The notes under the pieces were generated by a model. That model searched no databases. It was not told where the DNA came from and saw only the letters and a program-made list of their open reading frames with translations. Of a stretch of 64,000 nt of DNA, positions 31,186-46,222 are shown piece after piece. A program made the position numbers and the translations under genes. Positions within the stretch are counted from its first letter, which is position 1. Each line of letters opens with the position of its first letter. Source of the stretch: Escherichia coli (GTDB lineage Bacteria; Pseudomonadota; Gammaproteobacteria; Enterobacterales; Enterobacteriaceae); NCBI RefSeq assembly GCF_003334785.1, contig NZ_QOWV01000001.1. One strand, given 5' to 3'.

Positions 31186-33609
31186 TTAAAATCTGAATGT
31201 CATATCGAATTCAACGTATAAGTTGTGTTCTCTGTCACCGTCATAAGGTCGTTTTTCCCAGCGTAGCGTTGCGCCAGCATCAATCACGTCATTCCAACTA
31301 ATGCGTTGCCCGTAGCCGAGTTGGGTGACGACATCCGTGCCATAATGTTTTTGCCAGGAGGCACCAACACCTGCGCTGAATATTTGCTCCCAGCTATTTT
31401 CATAGCTTCGCCATAACAAATGGCTTGCCTCAAATGCCGGAACAATATCGAACGTTTTTATAGGGTTGTAGTATGGGGTATCGTGTTCTGTATTTTGTTC
31501 GTAATACAGACTGGGTAGGAAATCGACAATCAAATATGGTGAAGACCAGATGCGTTCCTGACCCTCAAGTGAGACTTCATGACGCTGGTTACTGTCGGAA
31601 AAATCAGTGAAAGCCCAGGAGACACCGTACTTACGCCGCTCATTTTGATACCAGCGAACATAAGCCTGAGCACTGTTGCCTGTAACACCATTTTTCATTG
31701 CCCGTAATGGAACGCGGTGAGAGAGGCGTTCCAGTTGCGAACCAATACGCCAGTTATCATTAAAATCATACCAGCCAGACAGGCGCGCGCCGGGTTTATG
31801 CTCATGATTGAAAACGCGTTCAGCGTACTCTGCCTCGAGCCAGATATTACGTGACCGCCACTCAACACCCGCAAGCCAGTCGCGAACAATCCCTTTTCCT
31901 TCGCTAAATTGTCCATCGGCATAACCGAATCCAGCAAAACCGCGCCAGTTATCCTTCAGCGGTGGTGAATAAACGATGGTGGTTAAGTCGACATCATGTT
32001 TACCACTATCCGGGCCTTCGGCATCAATTCCTGTTGAGCCAGCGATACGAAGCTCTGCAAGATTATGTACATCAACCGCACGTTTTAATCGTACAACGCC
32101 GGGATCTTGCGGTTCACGTTCGACAACATCGTGCGTTAAGACAGCTGCCTGCTGCCATTCTTGTAACGTTAATGCTGTCCAGGCTTGTTCAACCTCCAGA
32201 TTAATATTACGTGGCTCGATCACTTCTGCTTTTTTTAATTCATTTTCTGCTGCACGAGGCCAACCGCGGGCTTGTAACACACTCGCGTAATCAATGCGCA
32301 GTCCCTGATTTCCTGGTGCGTTATAAGCAAGCTCTCTGGCTGTCATTTCAGCCTGAGGAAGATCATTACTATATTTTGCTACGGTTGAGAGAAACGAATG
32401 CCCCTGTAACCAGGTATCATTCGGGATGCTCGTAGGCGTGCCCATTAACCGAAGGAAAGGCGGCGAAGTATTAATGGTATGTTGGGTGACAGTTAGCGCG
32501 CCCGGATAATTTTCACTCTCCAGGTGGCTGTAAAAGAGATCCGCAAGTTCTTCATCGGATAAATCCGGGGCAATGGTCTCCTTGTGATAAAAGAGCTCGG
32601 TCATTATTGACTGTGCTTTTTTCGGCTGATGATCTTTGAGATAAGCCGATGCAACCCAATATTGCCCCCAGGGCGGAATAATTTGCCCCGTCTTTTTTAA
32701 TCGCTGATAGTGAGAAATAACGTCTTTATAACGATCGCGAGTTAATAACGCGCCAAGATGATCAACCTGAATACGCTGGTACTGGGCAGTGCGGTCTGGG
32801 TTATCGTGCCACAGAATTTCTAATGCAGCGTATTGGGCGAGGGCGCGATCGGCAATGGCATAACGTTCACTTTCACTGCGCGTAGGCATAAACGACAGTC
32901 TGACCAGTTCGGCATGAATATCAGCGCGAATATCTGGCGTTAAATTGGCATCGTCAATCGCGGCAGCAAGTTGATTATTACGTAATGCCTGCACGTATTC
33001 TGTGGGATATTGTTGCGTAGATGCATTTTCAGGTAATGACTCTGTCATCGCCCGTAATTCATCCTGATGACGCCCCGCCAGTTTATAGATATAGGCTTCT
33101 GCGAGTAAATTGGCTTTGTCCGGTGCTCCAGAGTTAAGCTGCTTAAGTTTAACCAGCGCAGTATCATAGTGACCAGCATCTGCCAGGGTTAAAATTTGTC
33201 CCCGTTGATAATCCTTATTTTGCGGCTCCAGAGAGAGCGCCTTTTGCCACAGTGTAAGCGAGTTTTGCCATTGTTGCAGGTTACGATAAGCGACGGCGAC
33301 AGCTGCATAACCACGCGCTGGTAATTGCTGATGACGGTAGCGGTTGTAAACGGTAATAACCTGTTTATCTTGCCCGGCCCATAAGGCAATCTGTAACCAG
33401 TCAGCAATTTGGTTATTGCTGAGTGCTGATTTTAGTGCAAACCATGACAAAGCTGGCTGAGTATTACCCTTGCGAGCTTCAATAATCAATGCATCATAGG
33501 CGTTATTAACAGCACTCTTCGCCGCGGGACTCGCTGCTAAAAATGCGGCAGTAAGAAGTTTCAAAGCCCATTTGGTTTTCGGGCACCTTTTTCTGCTACT
33601 TGAATACAT
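31186..33609 (-). CDS. pgaA: PGA outer-membrane export porin PgaA (TPR plus beta-barrel)
   Basis: 807 aa. Confidence 0.93.
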   Translation of the reverse strand: MYSSSRKRCPKTKWALKLLTAAFLAASPAAKSAVNNAYDALIIEARKGNTQPALSWFALKSALSNNQIADWLQIALWAGQDKQVITVYNRYRHQQLPARGYAAVAVAYRNLQQWQNSLTLWQKALSLEPQNKDYQRGQILTLADAGHYDTALVKLKQLNSGAPDKANLLAEAYIYKLAGRHQDELRAMTESLPENASTQQYPTEYVQALRNNQLAAAIDDANLTPDIRADIHAELVRLSFMPTRSESERYAIADRALAQYAALEILWHDNPDRTAQYQRIQVDHLGALLTRDRYKDVISHYQRLKKTGQIIPPWGQYWVASAYLKDHQPKKAQSIMTELFYHKETIAPDLSDEELADLFYSHLESENYPGALTVTQHTINTSPPFLRLMGTPTSIPNDTWLQGHSFLSTVAKYSNDLPQAEMTARELAYNAPGNQGLRIDYASVLQARGWPRAAENELKKAEVIEPRNINLEVEQAWTALTLQEWQQAAVLTHDVVEREPQDPGVVRLKRAVDVHNLAELRIAGSTGIDAEGPDSGKHDVDLTTIVYSPPLKDNWRGFAGFGYADGQFSEGKGIVRDWLAGVEWRSRNIWLEAEYAERVFNHEHKPGARLSGWYDFNDNWRIGSQLERLSHRVPLRAMKNGVTGNSAQAYVRWYQNERRKYGVSWAFTDFSDSNQRHEVSLEGQERIWSSPYLIVDFLPSLYYEQNTEHDTPYYNPIKTFDIVPAFEASHLLWRSYENSWEQIFSAGVGASWQKHYGTDVVTQLGYGQRISWNDVIDAGATLRWEKRPYDGDREHNLYVEFDMTFRF

Positions 33610-34195: not shown

Positions 34196-35554
34196 ATGGA
34201 AAAAGACTATTTGAGAATGAGTAGTACTGTATTAGTGAGCTTATTGTTTGGGCTTGCTTTGGTTTTGGTGAATAGTTGGTTTAATCAGCCAGGCGTTGAG
34301 GAAGTTGTTCCACGATCAACCTATCTGATGGTAATGATTGCTTTATTTTTTATCGATACTGTTGCATTTATTTTTATGCAGTTGTATTTCATTTATGACC
34401 GTAGGCAATTTTCAAACTGTGTACTTAGTTTGGCTTTTCTGAGTTGTTTGATTTACTTTGTTATAACCGTCATTATCATTCAGCAAATTATTGAGGAGCG
34501 TTTGACAAGCAGTGTTGTCCAAAATGACATTGCAATCTATTATTTGTTTCGTCAGATGAGTTTGTGCATATTAATATTTCTGGCATTGGTGAATAAAGTT
34601 AGTGAAAACACAAAACAGCGCAATTTATTTTCCAAAAAAATGACTTTGTGCATAAGTTTGTTTTTTGTTTTTGGGGGGCCGATAGTTGCTCACATACTTT
34701 CTAGTCATTATGAGAGCTACAATTTACACATTGCCGAGTTAACCAATGAAAATGGTCAGGTGGTTTGGAAAGCCTCATATGTTACCATAATGATTTTCAT
34801 GTGGTTAACCTTGCTTTCGGTTAATCTATACTTTAATGGTTTACGCTATGATATCTGGAATGGAGTGACGGTGATTGCTTTTTGTGCCGTACTGTACAAT
34901 ATCTCTCTGTTATTTATGAGCAGGTATAGCGTGTCCACTTGGTATATTAGTCGCACTATTGAAGTAGTCAGTAAGTTAACCGTTATGGTAATATTTATGT
35001 GCCATATATTCAGTGCGCTACGAGTAACAAAGAACATTGCACATCGCGATCCCTTAACCAATATATTTAACAGAAATTATTTTTTTAATGAACTGACAGT
35101 TCAATCAGCATCAGCCCAAAAAACGCCTTATTGCGTCATGATTATGGATATCGACCACTTCAAAAAAGTCAACGACACCTGGGGGCATCCGGTTGGCGAT
35201 CAGGTGATAAAAACAGTGGTGAATATCATTGGGAAAAGCATACGACCAGATGACCTTTTAGCGCGCGTCGGCGGCGAAGAGTTTGGCGTCTTGCTGACGG
35301 ACATCGATACTGAACGTGCGAAAGCTTTAGCGGAAAGGATTCGGGAAAATGTTGAGCGTTTAACTGGCGATAATCCTGAATACGCTATACCACAAAAAGT
35401 GACGATTAGTATTGGCGCTGTTGTGACTCAGGAAAATGCGTTAAACCCAAATGAGATCTATCGACTGGCTGATAACGCACTTTACGAGGCGAAAGAGACC
35501 GGGCGTAATAAGGTGGTTGTGAGGGATGTGGTGAATTTTTGTGAGTCACCATAA
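34196..35554 (+). CDS. dgcT: Diguanylate cyclase DgcT (YcdT), membrane-anchored GGDEF
   Basis: 452 aa from MEKDYLRMSS; GGEEF motif. Confidence 0.92.
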   Translation: MEKDYLRMSSTVLVSLLFGLALVLVNSWFNQPGVEEVVPRSTYLMVMIALFFIDTVAFIFMQLYFIYDRRQFSNCVLSLAFLSCLIYFVITVIIIQQIIEERLTSSVVQNDIAIYYLFRQMSLCILIFLALVNKVSENTKQRNLFSKKMTLCISLFFVFGGPIVAHILSSHYESYNLHIAELTNENGQVVWKASYVTIMIFMWLTLLSVNLYFNGLRYDIWNGVTVIAFCAVLYNISLLFMSRYSVSTWYISRTIEVVSKLTVMVIFMCHIFSALRVTKNIAHRDPLTNIFNRNYFFNELTVQSASAQKTPYCVMIMDIDHFKKVNDTWGHPVGDQVIKTVVNIIGKSIRPDDLLARVGGEEFGVLLTDIDTERAKALAERIRENVERLTGDNPEYAIPQKVTISIGAVVTQENALNPNEIYRLADNALYEAKETGRNKVVVRDVVNFCESP

Positions 35555-35594
35555 AGCGGCATTTTGATCCTACCCACGTAATATGGACACAGGC

Positions 35595-36461
35595 CTAAGC
35601 GAGGTTCTTGTTTTCAAATTGTTCCGGACTGAGGCCGCCACACCAACTGTGCCGCCGCCACCGATTGTAATCACATTCGATATAATTAAACACCGTTGCC
35701 CGCATTATTTCCCGGCTGATAAAGTGTTCTCCATGGATACATTCCACTTTCAGCGAATGAAAGAAGCTTTCCACGCAGGCATTATCGTAGCAGCAACCTT
35801 TTGCGCTCATACTTCCACGCAGATTATGCCGCTTCAGTTGCGCCTGATAATCTGCTGAACAGTACTGGCCTCCACGGTCCGTGTGAACGATAACGTTCCG
35901 GGGCCTCTTACGCCGCCACAGCGCCATCTGCAGGGCATCGCAGGCCAGTTGCGCCGTCATGCGTGGCGACATTGACCAGCCAATAACGGCACGTGACCAC
36001 AGGTCAATGACCACTGCCAGATACAGCCAGCCTTCATCTGTACGTAAGTACGTGATGTCTCCTGCCCACTTCTGGTTCGGGCCACTGGCGTAAAAATCCT
36101 GCTCCAACAGATTTTCTGACACAGGCAGGCCGTGTGCGCGGTAGCTGACCGGGCTGAACTTCCGGGAGGCCTTTGCCCTCAGTCCCTGACGGCGCAGGCT
36201 TGCCGCCACGGTTTTTACGTTAAAGGGGTAACCCTGAGCACGCAGTTCATCCGTCAGGCGTGGGGCACCGTAACGCTGTTTTGACCGGGTAAAAGCCGCG
36301 AGGACAACGCTGTCGCAGTGTTGGCGGAACTGCTGACGCGTGCTTATCCTTGTCCGCCGCTGACACCACGTATACCAGCCGCTGCGGGCCACCCGGAGCA
36401 CGCGGCACATTGCTTTGATGCTGAACTCAGCCTGATGTTTTTCAATAAAGACATACTTCAT
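35595..36461 (-). CDS. insF: IS3 transposase OrfB (InsF)
   Basis: 288 aa, DDE integrase-like. Confidence 0.93.
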
Positions 36462-36757
36462 TTCAGGCGCTTCGCGAAGTATGTCGCGGCCTTTTGGAGG
36501 ATAGCCAGCTCTTCATCCCGTTCTGCCAGCTGGCGTTTGAGACGTGCAATCTCGGTAGACATCTCCAGTTCACGTTCAGAAGACGTCTGCTGATTTTGCT
36601 GTTTACTGCGCCAGTTGTAGAGTTGTGATTCATACAGGCTGAGTTCACGGGCTGCGGCAGTAACACCGATGCGTTCAGCAAGCTTCAGGGCTTCACTGCG
36701 AAATTCAGGCGAATGCTGTTTACGGGGTTTTTTACTGGTTGATACTGTTTTTGTCAT
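36458..36757 (-). CDS. insE: IS3 transposase OrfA (InsE)
   Basis: 99 aa from [18 protein letters not shown]; overlaps insF in -1 frame arrangement. Confidence 0.92.
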
Positions 36758-36822
36758 GTGAGTCACCTCTGACTGAGAGTTTACTCACTTAGCCGCGTGT
36801 CCACTATTGCTGGGTAAGATCA

Positions 36823-37166
36823 GTGCCTGGCACACGCGTTTGATGGAAGACGGCGTTCAGGCAATGCGCGATTATCTTGCCGGACTGGATATCGCTTCGC
36901 CAGAGCATCAGGTTCTGATGAACGTAACAGCAAAAAGCGAGGTCGCTCCGTCAATTATCAAAGAAAATCTCTCATTACACTTAACTCATACGGTGAAATG
37001 GACTGAATCTCTCGATACATTTCTGAATATGCCAACCCCGGTAGCTTTCCTTGAAATAAGTAATAAGCCCTATTTGGGGAATATGTTAAATGATTTTGCT
37101 GGCGTGGATCAGCAACGAGTTATGCATTGTCGTAAAGCATTTAGTGATGCAAAGGTATTCAAATGA
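36823..37166 (+). pseudogene. ymdE: ymdE, C-terminal fragment of a FabD-like malonyl-CoA:ACP transacylase, truncated by IS3
   Basis: ORF-track frame starts inside the IS3 terminal repeat; no plausible own start. Confidence 0.75.
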
Positions 37167-38149
37167 TTCCTGATTATTTAACTTTTATTCGCTTTCAGGA
37201 TAAACGAAATCTGATATACATTTATGCTATTGGACTTATTCTGATAGGCTTTTATTGGAAGAATGCAGGGTTTACTTTTCCATCAGAGGATATTGGTGTA
37301 GTTAGTGGGATTCTGGCTCTGGTGCTGTATAATTTTATTTTTGATCTCAAGGCGTACTGGGCTTATAAATGCGTCACGAAGAATATCGATTTTTCGTGGT
37401 TTAAGAAAAAGCAGAACCACAAAATAGAATTATTTCTTACACAACCTCTGGTGGCAGGATTTCTGTCGTTAATCATGTTGAGTGCAATGAGTTGGGGGCT
37501 ATACCAGCTTCTACCCTCGTTATATGCGCTGTTCCTGATTTCGTTACTTGGGCCGTTGGTCATCTTTCTGCTGTTTCGGATGATCCGCACCAGTTATGTC
37601 AAGCAGGTCGCTATTTCAGTAGCGAAAAAAGTAAAATATAAAAGTCTGACTCGCTATGTGCTGCTTTCGGTGTGCATCTCAACGGTTGTTAACCTGCTTA
37701 CTATCAGCCCGTTGCGTAACAGTGATTCTTTTGTGACAGAGGGGCAGTGGTTAACGTTTAAATCGATAATTGCATTGCTCATTCTTTGTGGCGTAGTGTT
37801 GGCGATTAATCTGTTTTTTCTGCGCTTCTCCAAGCGGTACGCTTTTCTGGGCAGGCTTTTTTTGCAGGAAATCGATCTGTTTTTCTCCAGTGAAAATGCG
37901 TTGTCGACCTTTTTTGCCAAGCCGCTTTGGCTTCGGTTATTCATATTGCTGGTTATTGAAGTGATGTGGATTACGCTGGTGTCGGTATTGGCAACGCTTG
38001 TAGAATGGCGGATTTGGTTTGAAGCCTATTTTTTACTCTGCTATGTACCGTGCTTAATTTACTATTTTTTCTATTGTCGATTCCTCTGGCATAACGATTT
38101 TATGATGGCATGTGACATGTATTTCCGTTGGGGGCATTTTAATAAGTGA
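37163..38149 (+). CDS. ycdU: Uncharacterised polytopic inner-membrane protein YcdU
   Basis: 328-aa AT-rich ORF with multiple hydrophobic segments. Confidence 0.85.
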
Positions 38150-38280
38150 GGAAGTGATAGGAAGTGACCAGATAATACATATATGTTCTGTACTCTCTTG
38201 CGCATTTTGATTGTTGACTGAGTAACCAGACAGTTGATGTGCACGATTTCCCCTCGCCCTAACAGACGTGGGCGGGGGCA

Positions 38281-38903
38281 CCCGGTGTGTGCAATATACG
38301 AAAAAAAAGCCCGTACTTTCGTACGAGCTCTTCTTTAAATATGGCGGTGAGGGGGGGATTGACTCGCTTCGCTCGCCCTGCGGGCAGCCCGCTCACTGCG
38401 TTCACGGTCTGTCCAACTGGCTGTCGCCAGTTGTCGAACCCCGGTCGGGGCTTCTCATCCCCCCGGTGTGTGCAATATACGAAAAAAAAGCCCGTACTTT
38501 CGTACGAGCTCTTCTTTAAATATGGCGGTGAGGGGGGGATTGACTCGCTTCGCTCGCCCTGCGGGCAGCCCGCTCACTGCGTTCACGGTCTGTCCAACTG
38601 GCTGTCGCCAGTTGTCGAACCCCGGTCGGGGCTTCTCATCCCCCCGGTGTGTGCAATATACGAAAAAAAAGCCCGTACTTTCGTACGAGCTCTTCTTTAA
38701 ATATGGCGGTGAGGGGGGGATTGACTCGCTTCGCTCGCCCTGCGGGCAGCCCGCTCACTGCGTTCACGGTCTGTCCAACTGGCTGTCGCCAGTTGTCGAA
38801 CCCCGGTCGGGGCTTCTCATCCCCCCGGTGTGTGCAATATACGAAAAAAAAGCCCGTACTTTCGTACGAGCTCTTCTTTAAATATGGCGGTGAGGGGGGG
38901 ATT
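38281..38903. repeat. tRNA-linked tandem repeat array: four 181-bp direct repeats, each carrying the serX terminator and the last 19 nt of tRNA-Ser
   Basis: Unit starts at about 38284, 38465, 38646, 38827 (period 181); shared tggcggtgagggggggatt core; near-identical copies. Confidence 0.9.
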
Positions 38904-38972
38904 CGAACCCCCGATACGTTGCCGTATACACACTTTCCAGGCGTGCTCCTTCAGCCACTCGGACACCTCACC
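38885..38972 (-). tRNA. serX: tRNA-Ser (88 nt, long variable arm)
   Basis: Acceptor 5' GGTGAGGTG / 3' CACCGCCA, T-arm GGTTCGAATCC; followed on minus strand by hairpin plus T-run. Confidence 0.9.
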
Positions 38973-40959: not shown

Positions 40960-41514
40960 ATGAACGAGTTTTCTATCCTCTGTCGTGTGCTGGGTTCGCT
41001 CTATTACCGCCAACCACAAGATCCTTTACTGGTGCCGCTGTTTACCCTGATTCGTGAGGGGAAACTGGCTGCGAACTGGCCACTGGAGCAGGATGAGTTG
41101 CTGACACGTTTGCAGAAAAGCTGTGATATGACGCAAGTCTCTGCCGATTACAATGCGTTGTTTATCGGCGATGAATGTGCTGTGCCGCCATATCGTAGCG
41201 CATGGGTTGAGGGCGCGACGGAAGCGGAAGTGCGCGCTTTTCTTTCTGAGCGAGGGATGCCATTAGCGGATACGCCAGCCGATCACATCGGCACATTGCT
41301 GCTCGCAGCTTCCTGGCTGGAAGATCAGTCAACGGAAGATGAGAGCGAAGCACTGGAAACACTGTTCAGTGAGTATCTGTTACCCTGGTGTGGTGCGTTC
41401 CTTGGCAAAGTGGAGGCCCATGCAACCACGCCTTTCTGGCGCACCATGGCACCGCTAACCCGCGATGCCATTAGTGCAATGTGGGACGAGCTGGAAGAAG
41501 ATTCTGAAGAATAA
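40960..41514 (+). CDS. ycdY: TorD/DmsD-family chaperone YcdY
   Basis: 184 aa. Confidence 0.88.
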   Translation: MNEFSILCRVLGSLYYRQPQDPLLVPLFTLIREGKLAANWPLEQDELLTRLQKSCDMTQVSADYNALFIGDECAVPPYRSAWVEGATEAEVRAFLSERGMPLADTPADHIGTLLLAASWLEDQSTEDESEALETLFSEYLLPWCGAFLGKVEAHATTPFWRTMAPLTRDAISAMWDELEEDSEE

Positions 41515-43030: not shown

Positions 43031-43447
43031 TTAAAAATCGGTTGAGTTATTTTGTAAACCCGAAACCTGGATGGTCGAGGTTTGTCCGGTTTTACGATCT
43101 GTCACGTTCAACTGCAATTGACCATCGCGGTTGGCAATATCGACAATATAATCGTTGGTCACCATGCGGCCCGGTTTACCGGTATTAATATTCGACAGTA
43201 GCCCACCTAAAATTTGTGACTGGATGGCCTGAGTAAAGTTATCTAACGCTGAGGGTGTTTCAATACCAAAGTCATCGTTATAGCTCGGATCTTTATAAGA
43301 GTTTTGGGCCTGAGCGCTATTTAATAAAAAAGCGCCATTATTTGGGTTACCACCAAAGTTTGGATTACGGAACTGGAAAGTCATGGTTCCAGCCCAACTT
43401 AATGGCGAAATAAGCATGAGTAGAACTACTGCATGTTTGACACGCAT
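43031..43447 (-). CDS. csgF: Curli assembly component CsgF
   Basis: 138 aa. Confidence 0.93.
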
Positions 43448-43471
43448 TGCAGCCTCCGAACAATTTTTTAT

Positions 43472-43861
43472 TTAGAATTCATCATGCGCCAAATCGCCCG
43501 TACTTAATAACGCCTGATTTATCTGGCGACGATTTAGTGCTTCTTCAGTTTGAATCAGTGCAAAGACGACAGTTTTCTCGAAGTCTCTTTTCAACGGAAA
43601 TAAAAAAGTCTGGAAAATAACGTCCTGATTGACCGTTATAGTGATCCAGCTTCCCCATCGTGCACTGGGCCTTTCATTAATCGTTAAGTTACCCGTATAG
43701 TCACTTTCCCATTTATCACTAAAGGCTCGGTAAAAATCATGGCCAATAGATGAAACAGTATGGTCAGTTAGCAATCCCGGGACTTCTACCTCAACGGCGT
43801 GAAGATTCCCTGCGGCGAACAGAAATTCTGCCGCCACAATCCAGCGTAAATAACGTTTCAT
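43472..43861 (-). CDS. csgE: Curli secretion specificity factor CsgE
   Basis: 129 aa. Confidence 0.93.
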
Positions 43862-43865
43862 GGCT

Positions 43866-44516
<651 letters not shown>

Positions 44517-45270
44517 GATGAAACCCCGCTTTTTTTATTGATCGCACACCTGACAGCTGCCTCTAAAATAGAAGCACCAGAAGTACTGACAGATGTTGCA
44601 CTGCTGTGTGTAGTAATAAATCAGCCCTAAATGGGTAAAATATAAAACTAATGGATTACATCTGATTTCAATCTAGCCATTACAAATCTTAAATCAAGTG
44701 TTAAACATGTAACTAAATGTAACTCGTTATATTAAAATGTTAACCTTAAGGTTTTATTAAGTTTAGAAATGATAGAAAAGTTGTACATTTGGTTTTTATT
44801 GCACAATTTTAAAAAATCATACAAATGGTGATAACTTACTAATAATGCATATAAAAAATATTTCGGTGTAGTCCTTTCGTCATGTAAAACGTTCTTGTTT
44901 TTTCTCCACACCTCCGTGGACAATTTTTTACTGCAAAAAGACGAGGTTTGTCACGGCTTGTGCGCAAGACATATCGCAGCAATCAGCGACGGGCAAGAAG
45001 AATGACTGTCTGGTGCTTTTTGATAGCGGAAAGCGGAGATTTAAAAGAAAACAAAATATTTTTTTGCGTAGATAACAGCGTATTTACGTGGGTTTTAATA
45101 CTTTGGTATGAACTAAAAAAGAAAAATACAACGCGCGGGTGAGTTATTAAAAATATTTCCGCAGACATACTTTCCATCGTAACGCAGCGTTAACAAAATA
45201 CAGGTTGCGTTAACAACCAAGTTGAAATGATTTAATTTCTTAAATGTACGACCAGGTCCAGGGTGACAAC
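44517..45270. promoter_or_regulatory. csgD-csgB divergent intergenic control region
   Basis: 754-bp AT-rich non-coding DNA between divergent csgDEFG and csgBAC operons. Confidence 0.8.
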
Positions 45271-45726
45271 ATGAAAAACAAATTGTTATTTATGATGTTA
45301 ACAATACTGGGTGCGCCTGGGATTGCAGCCGCAGCAGGTTATGATTTAGCTAATTCAGAATATAACTTCGCGGTAAATGAATTGAGTAAGTCTTCATTTA
45401 ATCAGGCAGCCATAATTGGTCAAGCTGGGACTAATAATAGTGCTCAGTTACGGCAGGGAGGCTCAAAACTTTTGGCGGTTGTTGCGCAAGAAGGTAGTAG
45501 CAACCGGGCAAAGATTGACCAGACAGGAGATTATAACCTTGCATATATTGATCAGGCGGGCAGTGCCAACGATGCCAGTATTTCGCAAGGTGCTTATGGT
45601 AATACTGCGATGATTATCCAGAAAGGTTCTGGTAATAAAGCAAATATTACACAGTATGGTACTCAAAAAACGGCAATTGTAGTGCAGAGACAGTCGCAAA
45701 TGGCTATTCGCGTGACACAACGTTAA
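45271..45726 (+). CDS. csgB: Curli nucleator subunit CsgB
   Basis: 151 aa from MKNKLLFMMLT. Confidence 0.95.
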   Translation: MKNKLLFMMLTILGAPGIAAAAGYDLANSEYNFAVNELSKSSFNQAAIIGQAGTNNSAQLRQGGSKLLAVVAQEGSSNRAKIDQTGDYNLAYIDQAGSANDASISQGAYGNTAMIIQKGSGNKANITQYGTQKTAIVVQRQSQMAIRVTQR

Positions 45727-45766
45727 TTTCCATTCGACTTTTAAATCAATCCGATGGGGGTTTTAC

Positions 45767-46222
45767 ATGAAACTTTTAAAAGTAGCAGCAATTGCAGCAA
45801 TCGTATTCTCCGGTAGCGCTCTGGCAGGTGTTGTTCCTCAGTACGGCGGCGGCGGTAACCACGGTGGTGGCGGTAATAATAGCGGCCCAAATTCTGAGCT
45901 GAACATTTACCAGTACGGTGGCGGTAACTCTGCACTTGCTCTGCAAACTGATGCCCGTAACTCTGACTTGACTATTACCCAGCATGGCGGCGGTAATGGT
46001 GCAGATGTTGGTCAGGGCTCAGATGACAGCTCAATCGATCTGACCCAACGTGGCTTCGGTAACAGCGCTACTCTTGATCAGTGGAACGGCAAAAATTCTG
46101 AAATGACGGTTAAACAGTTCGGTGGTGGCAACGGTGCTGCAGTTGACCAGACTGCATCTAACTCCTCCGTCAACGTGACTCAGGTTGGCTTTGGTAACAA
46201 CGCGACCGCTCATCAGTACTAA
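45767..46222 (+). CDS. csgA: Major curlin subunit CsgA
   Basis: 151 aa with Gly/Asn/Gln-rich imperfect repeats. Confidence 0.95.
   Translation: MKLLKVAAIAAIVFSGSALAGVVPQYGGGGNHGGGGNNSGPNSELNIYQYGGGNSALALQTDARNSDLTITQHGGGNGADVGQGSDDSSIDLTQRGFGNSATLDQWNGKNSEMTVKQFGGGNGAAVDQTASNSSVNVTQVGFGNNATAHQY

Follow-up and report, generated by a model that had tools for sequence, protein, structure and literature searches.

The closest described counterpart of the ymdE-ycdU locus is OI-47 (z1528-z1556) of E. coli O157:H7 EDL933, an island with a published size of 31,727 bp (PMC8565820) that has been labelled "adhesin and fatty-acid biosynthesis". OI-47 was defined by subtraction from K-12, and so the 3' part of ymdE and ycdU were counted as backbone. 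The lipid genes next to them share an enzyme set with the cyl operon of group B Streptococcus (granadaene polyene lipid). The aryl-polyene (APE) clusters of Enterobacteria combine type-II FAS-like lipid genes with LolA-like export components for outer-membrane localization. Adjacent deletion by intramolecular transposition is known for IS1 and IS3. Our analysis indicates, with high probability, that the K-12 segment 36823-38280 is the distal stump of a 15-gene lipid operon cut by IS3-adjacent deletions and that ycdU is most likely a relic in K-12.

The window, the whole 64,000-nucleotide stretch of E. coli DNA that was analysed, contains the segment between the IS3 element, which ends at 36822, and the serX-linked 181-bp repeat, which starts at 38281. 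The earlier note had placed it between the IS3 and the tRNA-linked repeats, and these coordinates are exact. The left neighbour is dgcT (ycdT; 34196-35554, plus strand; ORF and RefSeq annotation), followed by the 1,258-bp IS3 (35565-36822, transposase on the minus strand) between the flanks gcggcattt and gtgcctggc. The segment consists of the C-terminal 114 codons of ymdE (36823-37166, plus strand, delimited by comparison with the full-length O157:H7 gene), the intact ycdU (37163-38149, plus strand), encoding a 328-aa inner-membrane protein with eight predicted TM helices, and a non-coding spacer to the repeat array (38150-38280), conserved in O157:H7. The ymdE fragment is in frame (36825-37166), and its stop overlaps the ycdU start as ATGA. 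The 181-bp tandem units (3.4 perfect copies at 38281-38884, minus strand; TRF, 100% matches) lie downstream of serX, tRNA-Ser(GGA), at 38885-38972 on the minus strand. The variable segment, as seen across strains, already includes the last ~37 nt of dgcT (from 35518) on the left and ends at 38280, the right end of the spacer. Two kinds of candidate genes were rejected, a 119-aa ORF at 36807-37166, whose TTG start sits in the IS3 terminal repeat, and the 137-aa ORFs inside the repeat array, which are artefacts.

The dgcT and ymdE junctions of K-12 stand 31.7 kb apart in O157:H7. K-12 aligns with the O157:H7 sequence (L003) to position 9475 and resumes at 41211, with IS3 in place of the intervening 31,735 bp, a length in agreement with the published size of OI-47; the K-12 sequence resumes exactly where OI-47 ends, inside ymdE. 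By this alignment, we identified the ymdE 3' part and ycdU as the two genes that close the OI-47 operon. The operon (15 genes, 14.8 kb) makes up the right-hand portion of the ~33 kb of accessory DNA that lies between dgcT and serX and comprises OI-47, the ymdE 3' part and ycdU. Its genes encode, in order, AcpS, KR, DH, ACP, a GcvT-like aminomethyltransferase, a fused KS-KS, KS, three orphan proteins, a MacB-type ABC ATPase and permease, a LolA-like protein, a probable outer-membrane barrel, the trans-AT/FabD-like YmdE and YcdU. The intergenic gaps are -17 to +73 bp, and ymdE and ycdU overlap by ATGA. Signal peptides were detected in hyp218, the LolA-like protein and hyp462, and the hyp462 C-terminus reads ...GFKYYL. 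The three orphan proteins gave no family match in Pfam/NCBIfam, and we found no characterization of the operon in the literature on OI-47 locus tags or on cyl-like clusters in Enterobacteria.

The full-length ymdE of O157:H7 (L003 40613-41554) encodes a 313-aa FabD/trans-AT-like malonyl-CoA:ACP transacylase, in which both GHSVG (Ser97) and AWH(202) are present. It matches the TIGR00128 profile (E=1.8e-52), scores 178.7 bits against the fabD equivalog, under the cut-off of 260.9 bits, and is similar to PksC/DisD (E~1e-32). The K-12 fragment corresponds to residues 200-313 and is a pseudogene, because it starts at residue 200 and is without the GHSVG Ser97; judged from its sequence, it is catalytically dead. 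The pseudogene fragment proposed in the earlier note is therefore confirmed, with 114 codons remaining and the active-site serine absent.

The similarity of the E. coli cluster to cyl is one of domain content (RefSeq annotation, NCBIfam/Pfam domain matches) and covers a dedicated ACP, KR, DH, a large KS, the GcvT-like (CylF-like) aminomethyltransferase, malonyl transferase, PPTase and an ABC exporter. In contrast to cyl, no CylE-like N-acyltransferase or glycosyltransferase was recognized in the E. coli cluster, which has additional components for a Gram-negative envelope (MacB-type permease, LolA-like protein, probable barrel); YcdU has no counterpart in cyl. The APE clusters are likewise type-II FAS-like with a LolA-like part, but the E. 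coli cluster differs from them in its KS architecture, includes a GcvT-like gene, carries an ABC exporter in place of an MMPL one, and lacks genes for adenylation and for methyltransferases.

Topology and structure prediction, proposed for YcdU by the earlier note, supports its description as a polytopic membrane protein: the ORF is intact, with ~8 hydrophobic helices, and the AF2 model (pLDDT 88.5, pTM 0.85) has eight TM helices. The absence of an assigned function is also correct, since YcdU gave no family match in Pfam, NCBIfam, PADLOC or PHROGs. A Pfam Ycf12 match of 25 residues was rejected as spurious. The family exists as an NCBI name only, with no Pfam entry. The search for structural relatives found no solved or annotated one, and no motif or structural relative of known function was found. 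The family members are 8-TM proteins of ~330 aa with the motifs MIPDY..., KAYWAY, KRYxFLG and WHxDF..CDMY, encoded after a FabD-like gene. The conserved motifs of YcdU, at the N-terminus, in loops 62-70 and 224-238 and at the C-terminus (309-323), are all on the K/R-rich face.

A search with an alignment of 22 closer sequences detected only 19 YcdU loci among the representative genomes of 100,044 species. The homologues in other Enterobacterales (20-73% identity) are always encoded at the very end of this cluster, and at 18 loci of other species with usable flanks they immediately follow the FabD-like gene. The same order was found in K. aerogenes and a second Mixta, and four remote homologues (20-27% identity) are also encoded directly after a FabD-like gene in the same cluster. 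In other genera, these clusters occupy different chromosomal sites, mostly non-tRNA.

In the intact system, YcdU would be an inner-membrane protein dedicated to a type-II FAS/PKS-like lipid pathway, with its conserved polar motifs probably facing the cytoplasm, the site of the ACP and AT machinery. Its most likely role would be to take the ACP-bound acyl product, or to anchor its transfer, at the membrane, and it would then hand the acyl product to the ABC/LolA-like/barrel export route; this biochemical role is purely what we infer. A broader proposal, made tentatively and in our view rather unlikely, is that YcdU is the founder of an undescribed membrane-protein fold family and the obligatory inner-membrane part of a cyl-like type-II PKS/FAS lipid cluster with its own trans-envelope export (MacB-type ABC, periplasmic protein, LolA-like carrier, outer-membrane barrel). 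Beyond its occurrence in Enterobacterales, this cluster would, judged by structure, extend to Xenorhabdus, Providencia, Pseudomonas, Paraburkholderia and Desulfobacterota. If that were true, the orphan ycdU (~40% of E. coli) could counter the lipid from cluster-positive neighbours, as an immunity-like or acceptor protein.

The segment is present in 2,603 of the 5,426 complete E. coli genomes, and with the 19 loci in 100,044 species ycdU is not universally conserved, in agreement with the accessory character claimed in the earlier note. The operon is kept in 381 of these 5,426 genomes, while about 2,195 have the IS3-truncated stump only, a count that takes in a longer-fragment allele, nearby pieces being joined. 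An empty junction, with dgcT joined almost directly to serX, was found in 1,398. The B2 "empty-site" allele departs from K-12 at 35517/35518, resulting in an alternative C-terminus for dgcT.

The earlier note had called this DNA a decayed integrative island, and serX (minus strand) does place the segment on its 3' side, 0.6-2 kb past the 3' end with the RtT array between. A classical tRNA-targeted island that entered the serX 3' end by site-specific recombination and then decayed, with the tRNA 3'-end cores as att scars, would fit this variable interval, as serX itself is a proven integrase target. The literature agrees on serX as an island insertion site, for OI-48/SpLE1 and SRL-PAI (PMC3064760), the 1,398 genomes with the dgcT-serX junction are without the segment, and some strains lack the phoH-serX interval entirely (PMC5635171), which fits layered accretion at a tRNA. 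However, we detected no integrase gene in 33.6-38.3 kb of the window or in the O157:H7 segment dgcT-ycdU with its 29 annotated genes, and OI-48, the integrase-bearing island, is inserted beyond ycdU on the serX side. Searched with up to 2 mismatches, the serX core TGGCGGTGAGGGGG is absent at the dgcT-side boundary of the O157:H7 segment and occurs in L003 only at the OI-48 junction; a search for direct repeats flanking the 33-kb parent segment found none. The right boundary coincides with the beginning of the array, 63 nt past the end of the tRNA, and the same cluster is found at non-tRNA sites in most other genera.

The repeats themselves also argue against att scars. The last 19 nt of serX occur four times exactly (0 expected by chance), and each 181-bp unit consists of the serX trailer, these 19 nt and an RtT-like element. 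The units are 100% identical in tandem, unlike short att cores, and score as RtT (Rfam RF00391) three times at 46.3 bits, which barely exceeds the gathering threshold of 45; they likewise contain the tRNA 3' end, as in the tyrT-rtT tandem repeats. The RtT-like units lie outside the ymdE-ycdU segment. The "reiterated tRNA 3'-end cores" taken earlier as an island sign belong to an RtT-type tandem duplication and are not relics of att sites. What stands of that reading is that the segment is a remnant of accessory DNA, in a variable region 3' of serX; with neither an integrase nor att repeats present, integration at serX is unproven, and we consider an island of the classical kind unlikely.

The base composition was the other argument for an island. 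The GC content of 36823-38280 is 41.9% vs the window mean of 49.6%, at the 8th percentile of same-size sliding windows and ~1.5 sd low, so that "strongly AT-rich" was right in direction and overstated in degree. The deficit sits in codon positions 1 and 2 of ycdU (GC1 0.42, GC2 0.32), which encodes a Leu/Phe/Ile-rich membrane protein. The ycdU GC3 of 0.48 is ordinary vs the flanking core genes ghrA (0.476) and ycdX (0.463), its synonymous codon usage ranks 10 of 43 genes (<0.5 sd from the mean), and the parent operon has 49.4% GC, leaving the compositional argument weak. As a caution, moderate AT-richness in a membrane-protein gene is no evidence of foreign origin.

The E. coli-like operon GC and ycdU codon usage could also suggest that the dgcT-to-ycdU segment is ancestral Escherichia DNA and the B2-type "empty site" a secondary deletion, and the empty-site allele, in which an RtT unit is truncated and the 3' end of dgcT altered, looks like a deletion scar. 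We regard this as quite unlikely: YcdU had no match in the GTDB representatives of other Escherichia, Salmonella and Citrobacter, its 19 loci are few for the species searched, and the cluster locus differs in each genus. The empty-site allele is old, because it is diverse (in 1,082 genomes, the identity to the M1/5 junction is 90-95%) and paired with a dgcT only 91% identical to K-12 dgcT.

The stump is explained by the IS3. Its flanks (ttt / gtg) have no 3-bp target duplication, and we detected three alleles with an identical left IS3 junction and different right junctions. The right junction is at L003 41211 in the K-12 type (about 1,479 genomes, an approximate number obtained by subtraction), at L003 41027 in the longer-fragment allele (716 genomes; JNEC-KY208), and at window position 38360, inside the first RtT unit, in strain H1827/12. 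IS-mediated adjacent deletion is expected to leave the same picture, one IS end fixed, a nested series on the other flank and the target duplication lost. From the allele structure, we infer that the IS3 insertion preceded the deletions: IS3 would have inserted first just downstream of dgcT, one-sided IS3-adjacent deletions in succession would then have taken out 31.55 kb, with another 184 bp lost in the K-12 lineage. The outcome is a dead ymdE fragment and an intact orphan ycdU without an evident promoter of its own. The same IS3 copy caused a 26.5-kb rightward deletion in laboratory evolution (PMC8611074). Elsewhere, we found an independent IS1-mediated truncation and an IS1 inserted within ycdU. 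What eroded the locus was deletion by IS3 rather than the slow decay of an integrated element.

The about 2,195 stump genomes, vs 381 with the operon, raise the question of whether selection retains ycdU, alone or together with the ymdE fragment, for a stand-alone function, either self-protection from a membrane-active lipid of cluster-positive competitors or fitness in the bovine udder. The ORF is intact in the remnant genomes examined, the pairwise pN/pS is 0.1-0.25, and mastitis isolates are reported to retain ymdE-ycdU, as belonging to the phylogroup A core genome specific to mastitis (PMC4951805). However, the stump counts reflect one or two old deletions inherited by descent, not independent retention, and the 5 substitutions between the two remnant alleles are too few to show constraint after the deletion. 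ycdU was lost or IS1-disrupted in other lineages and was deleted in laboratory evolution without apparent cost (PMC8611074). Its RNA is very low in K-12 (53 and 64 counts; PMC10294691), and no promoter-like sites above chance were detected between IS3 and ycdU. We therefore consider such selection very unlikely, and some residual ycdU function may be present in remnant genomes. In K-12, ycdU most likely has no function and persists as a relic by inheritance.

Taken together, the K-12 annotation of a ymdE pseudogene and a y-gene of unknown function can be read as the tail of the OI-47 lipid operon, severed by IS3D. This gives ycdU a testable context outside K-12, in strains that still carry all 15 genes of the operon (O157:H7, Enterobacter, Kosakonia, Mixta). 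The current view of genomic islands and of serX is unchanged; the segment is a known, annotated relic and largely ordinary. Compared with the known IS-mediated adjacent deletions, the locus shows nothing unusual; it is an example of a single IS copy eroding an island stepwise across the species, and what our analysis adds is the population-scale view of the allele series.

The gene content of the window around the segment is E. coli K-12-like. The pgaA (31186-33609, minus strand) and dgcT/ycdT (34196-35554, plus strand) genes are followed by an IS3 copy (35565-36822, transposase on the minus strand), a 114-codon ymdE fragment ending at 37166, ycdU (37163-38149, plus strand, 328 aa), a 131-bp spacer, 3.4 perfect 181-bp tandem repeat units (38281-38903), serX, encoding tRNA-Ser(GGA) (38885-38972, minus strand), and ghrA. 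The bounds given to the ymdE-ycdU segment in the earlier note, 36823-38280, run exactly from the IS3 end to the first repeat. The mechanical 119-aa ORF at 36807-37166 was rejected as a gene, because its TTG start is inside the IS3 terminal repeat and the product is a hybrid with the ymdE fragment.

Colinearity of K-12 with O157:H7 EC4115 (locus L003) ends 10 nt beyond the dgcT stop (L003 9475) and returns at L003 41211, inside the gene of a 313-aa 'ACP S-malonyltransferase'; K-12 has IS3 in place of the intervening 31,735 bp. The replaced DNA matches the published O-island 47 (OI-47; z1528-z1556, 31,727 bp), which the literature labels 'adhesin and fatty-acid biosynthesis' (PMC8565820; PMC5567499). 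OI-47 begins with the genes of the EAL phosphodiesterase VmpA/PdeT and the regulator GrvA; a fimbrial operon, the genes of a two-partner secretion pair and a 15-gene operon follow in that order. The operon is tightly packed (gaps between genes of -17 to +73 bp) and starts with acpS, an SDR ketoreductase, a FabZ-like dehydratase, ACP, a GcvT-like aminomethyltransferase, an 852-aa double ketosynthase and a 407-aa ketosynthase (genes 1 to 7). These are followed by a 317-aa orphan protein (gene 8, L003 34795-35748), an ABC ATPase (gene 9), a 218-aa orphan protein with a signal peptide (gene 10, L003 36450-37106), a MacB/FtsX-type permease (gene 11), a LolA-like protein (PF17131, gene 12), a 462-aa orphan protein with a signal peptide and the C-terminal end ...GFKYYL (gene 13, L003 39211-40599), which is probably an outer-membrane barrel, the malonyl transferase, which is the full-length ymdE product (gene 14), and YcdU (gene 15). 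The 317-, 218- and 462-aa proteins have no family match in Pfam, NCBIfam, PADLOC or PHROG. The ymdE stop and the ycdU start are joined by an ATGA overlap. Full-length YmdE has a GHSVG active site (Ser97), and among solved structures it is closest to PksC and DisD, which are trans-acting PKS acyltransferases (E ~1e-32). The K-12 fragment begins at residue 200 without the active-site serine and is therefore dead, in agreement with its description in the earlier note as a pseudogene fragment.

The IS3 copy is flanked by ttt and gtg, with no 3-bp target duplication. The dgcT-side junction, aaagcggcattt/TGATCC, is identical in three alleles, while the right-hand junctions differ: the K-12 junction is at L003 41211, the JNEC-KY208 junction at L003 41027, leaving 184 bp more of ymdE, and in strain H1827/12 IS3 adjoins the first RtT unit and ycdU is lost. 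A fixed left and varying right junction without target duplication is the hallmark of an IS that repeatedly deletes adjacent DNA on one side, and such deletions would have produced the K-12 remnant. In laboratory evolution the same IS3 copy made a 26.5-kb deletion from ymdE to pyrC (PMC8611074). Another lineage has an IS1-mediated deletion leaving the 462-aa protein gene, intact ymdE and ycdU, and a further one has IS1 inserted within ycdU.

Among 5,426 complete E. coli genomes, the ymdE fragment/ycdU stretch is present in 2,603 and the upstream 13.3 kb of the operon in 381, mostly O157:H7/O55:H7. An IS3 end is within joining distance of the K-12 breakpoint in 2,195 genomes, 716 of them with the longer-fragment junction and approximately 1,479, by subtraction, with the K-12-type junction. 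The 'empty' allele (1,398 genomes) has dgcT with a different 16-residue tail, 48 bp, a truncated RtT unit and then serX. It is diverse, with only 90-95% identity to the M1/5 junction in 1,082 genomes, and is also found with a dgcT 91% identical to that of K-12, and is therefore old. The dgcT 3' end comes in two versions (window 35518-35554; locus L004 4819-4866), with the C-terminal end ...VVVRDVVNFCESP in K-12 and O157 and ...VVVKEAEILINRKDDE in B2-type strains. The switch from one version to the other falls at the left edge of the variable segment, so either the island or its loss rewrote the diguanylate cyclase C-terminus.

The interval 3' of serX is a variable region across strains, and the earlier note viewed it as a decayed integrative island at a known insertion site. 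That serX is such a site is correct: OI-48, a P4-type integrase island, is at serX in O157:H7 (PMC3064760). It is inserted between ycdU and serX and bounded by the 14-bp core TGGCGGTGAGGGGG, so ycdU is outside the true integrase-type island. We observed the O157:H7 tyrosine-integrase (OI-48-like) island at the serX core at L001 10694-11896 and L003 42730-42743. The 29 genes annotated in the O157:H7 dgcT-to-ycdU segment include no integrase; the segment has no serX core copy at its far end and no flanking direct repeats, and its right edge is 63 nt past the tRNA end. The same operon occupies unrelated sites in other genera, adjoining cyo/ampG in K. aerogenes and a siderophore cluster in one remote relative. 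It has tRNA neighbours only in Mixta (tRNA-Cys, tRNA-Leu), with none within 10 kb in Enterobacter, Kosakonia, Klebsiella, Leclercia, Silvania and Serratia. In Mixta (L008, L009, L025, L031, about 11370-11650) the operon ends ~0.4-0.5 kb before the tRNA-Cys/tRNA-Leu pair.

The reiterated tRNA 3'-end cores, taken earlier as a sign of an island, are real as repeats: the last 19 nt of serX, contained in each unit, occur in four exact copies, with none expected by chance. Each 181-bp unit consists of the 63-nt serX trailer, these 19 nt and ~99 nt scoring as RtT (46.3 bits for the unit vs the Rfam gathering score of 45), and copy number varies from a truncated unit in B2 strain M1/5 to one in JNEC-KY208 and three in K-12. 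The units are a perfect RtT-type tandem duplication, not att scars; the 137-aa ORFs crossing them were rejected as repeat artefacts. With the integration hallmarks absent and the repeats so explained, a decayed accessory island is therefore supported and integration at serX is not. The decay is due to IS3 deletion, with no sign of tRNA-targeted integration.

The segment is AT-richer than average (41.9% vs 49.6% GC for the window), but not strongly so, as the earlier note had it, being at the 8th percentile among same-size windows; dgcT, at 38.6% GC, is far more extreme. The ycdU GC deficit is at codon positions 1 and 2 (0.42 and 0.32), because the protein is rich in Leu (17%), Phe (10%) and Ile (9%). 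Its GC3 of 0.48 is at the level of the adjoining ghrA and ycdX, and in synonymous codon usage the gene is 10th among 43, <0.5 standard deviation off the mean. Composition by itself is little evidence for foreign origin, and the case rests on the comparison with other genomes. Elsewhere in the window, the most compositionally deviant gene, far beyond ycdU, is a 418-aa ORF (5355-6611, 34% GC, GC3 0.31). Another AT-rich stretch (43201-46158, 34-42% GC) covers a divergent intergenic region and flanking genes, with a 216-aa ORF (43866-44516, minus strand) and 160- and 151-aa ORFs (plus strand).

The YcdU family is small. HMMER against 1.84 billion representative proteins detected 47 matches at E<=1e-3, about a dozen full-length, and a word-indexed search of 5.8 billion clusters detected YcdU in Enterobacterales only (Enterobacter, Kosakonia, Mixta, Klebsiella oxytoca, K. 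aerogenes, Izhakiella, Silvania, Pantoea). A scan of 100,044 species, one genome each, gave 19 loci, one being a contaminated MAG scaffold. That scaffold (L013, QFQM01000612.1, 1,615 bp), binned as 'Flavobacterium psychrophilum', has a ycdU with 100% identity to the E. coli gene, almost certainly bin contamination. We analyzed gene context in 18 genome loci, in four remote homologues (20-27% identity) and in two further contigs, from Klebsiella and Mixta. Wherever the context is informative, the homologue directly follows the FabD-like gene and closes the same cluster; on one short contig only the FabD-like neighbour is visible. The AlphaFold2 model (30-sequence alignment, pLDDT 88.5, pTM 0.85) is confident and has about eight transmembrane helices, in line with the earlier description of a polytopic membrane protein. 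By charge distribution, both termini and loops 63-87, 141-165 and 221-254 are cytoplasmic, and the conserved motifs MIPDY..R..Q (N-terminus), KAYWAYK (62-68), KRYxFLGRLFxxEID (224-238) and WHxDFxxxCDMYxR (309-322) are all predicted on the cytoplasmic face.

In K-12, ycdU is orphaned. No promoter-like site was found between IS3 and the ycdU start, ycdU RNA is very low (normalised counts of 53 in the wild type and 64 in a phoB deletion mutant; PMC10294691), and the gene is dispensable in the laboratory, the region having been lost in an evolution experiment (PMC8611074). Pairwise pN/pS of ycdU is 0.1-0.25, mostly a record of the period that preceded the deletion; between the two remnant alleles there are just 3 synonymous and 2 non-synonymous changes, too few to judge constraint. 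The association of ymdE-ycdU with phylogroup A mastitis isolates (PMC4951805) possibly indicates residual ycdU function and is explained equally by clonal inheritance. With all elements annotated and the parent island published, the locus is already known in kind; our analysis adds modest detail, namely the YcdU operon membership, the nested-deletion allele series with frequencies and the orphan fold. The literature searched gave no characterisation of the OI-47 operon or YcdU, and this uncharacterised lipid cluster is the one thread worth pursuing, in strains still carrying it.

Taken together, YcdU is dedicated to, co-inherited with and translationally coupled within a type-II FAS/PKS-like cluster whose genes also include a complete export set for crossing the envelope. 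On the cluster ACP, the cytoplasmic enzymes would build an acyl or polyene chain; YcdU, its conserved polar face turned to the cytoplasm, would accept the product at the inner membrane or anchor off-loading to a membrane acceptor; and the MacB-type ABC, periplasmic and LolA-like proteins and the barrel would transport it outward. The YcdU step would be important, since the cluster has no recognisable thioesterase or acyltransferase. That YcdU is needed in some way for cluster function is quite probable, and the accepting or anchoring role is a tentative suggestion that we would put at somewhat below even chances.

The cyl operon of group B Streptococcus, for the polyene lipid granadaene, encodes ACP, CylG, CylZ, CylI, the GcvT-like CylF, CylD, a PPTase and the CylAB exporter (PMC6985545; PMC4315905). 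The OI-47 cluster resembles it in enzyme set, a likeness of domain content only, and unlike cyl has no recognised CylE-like acyltransferase. In combining a lipid pathway with a LolA-like export protein, the OI-47 cluster also recalls aryl-polyene clusters.
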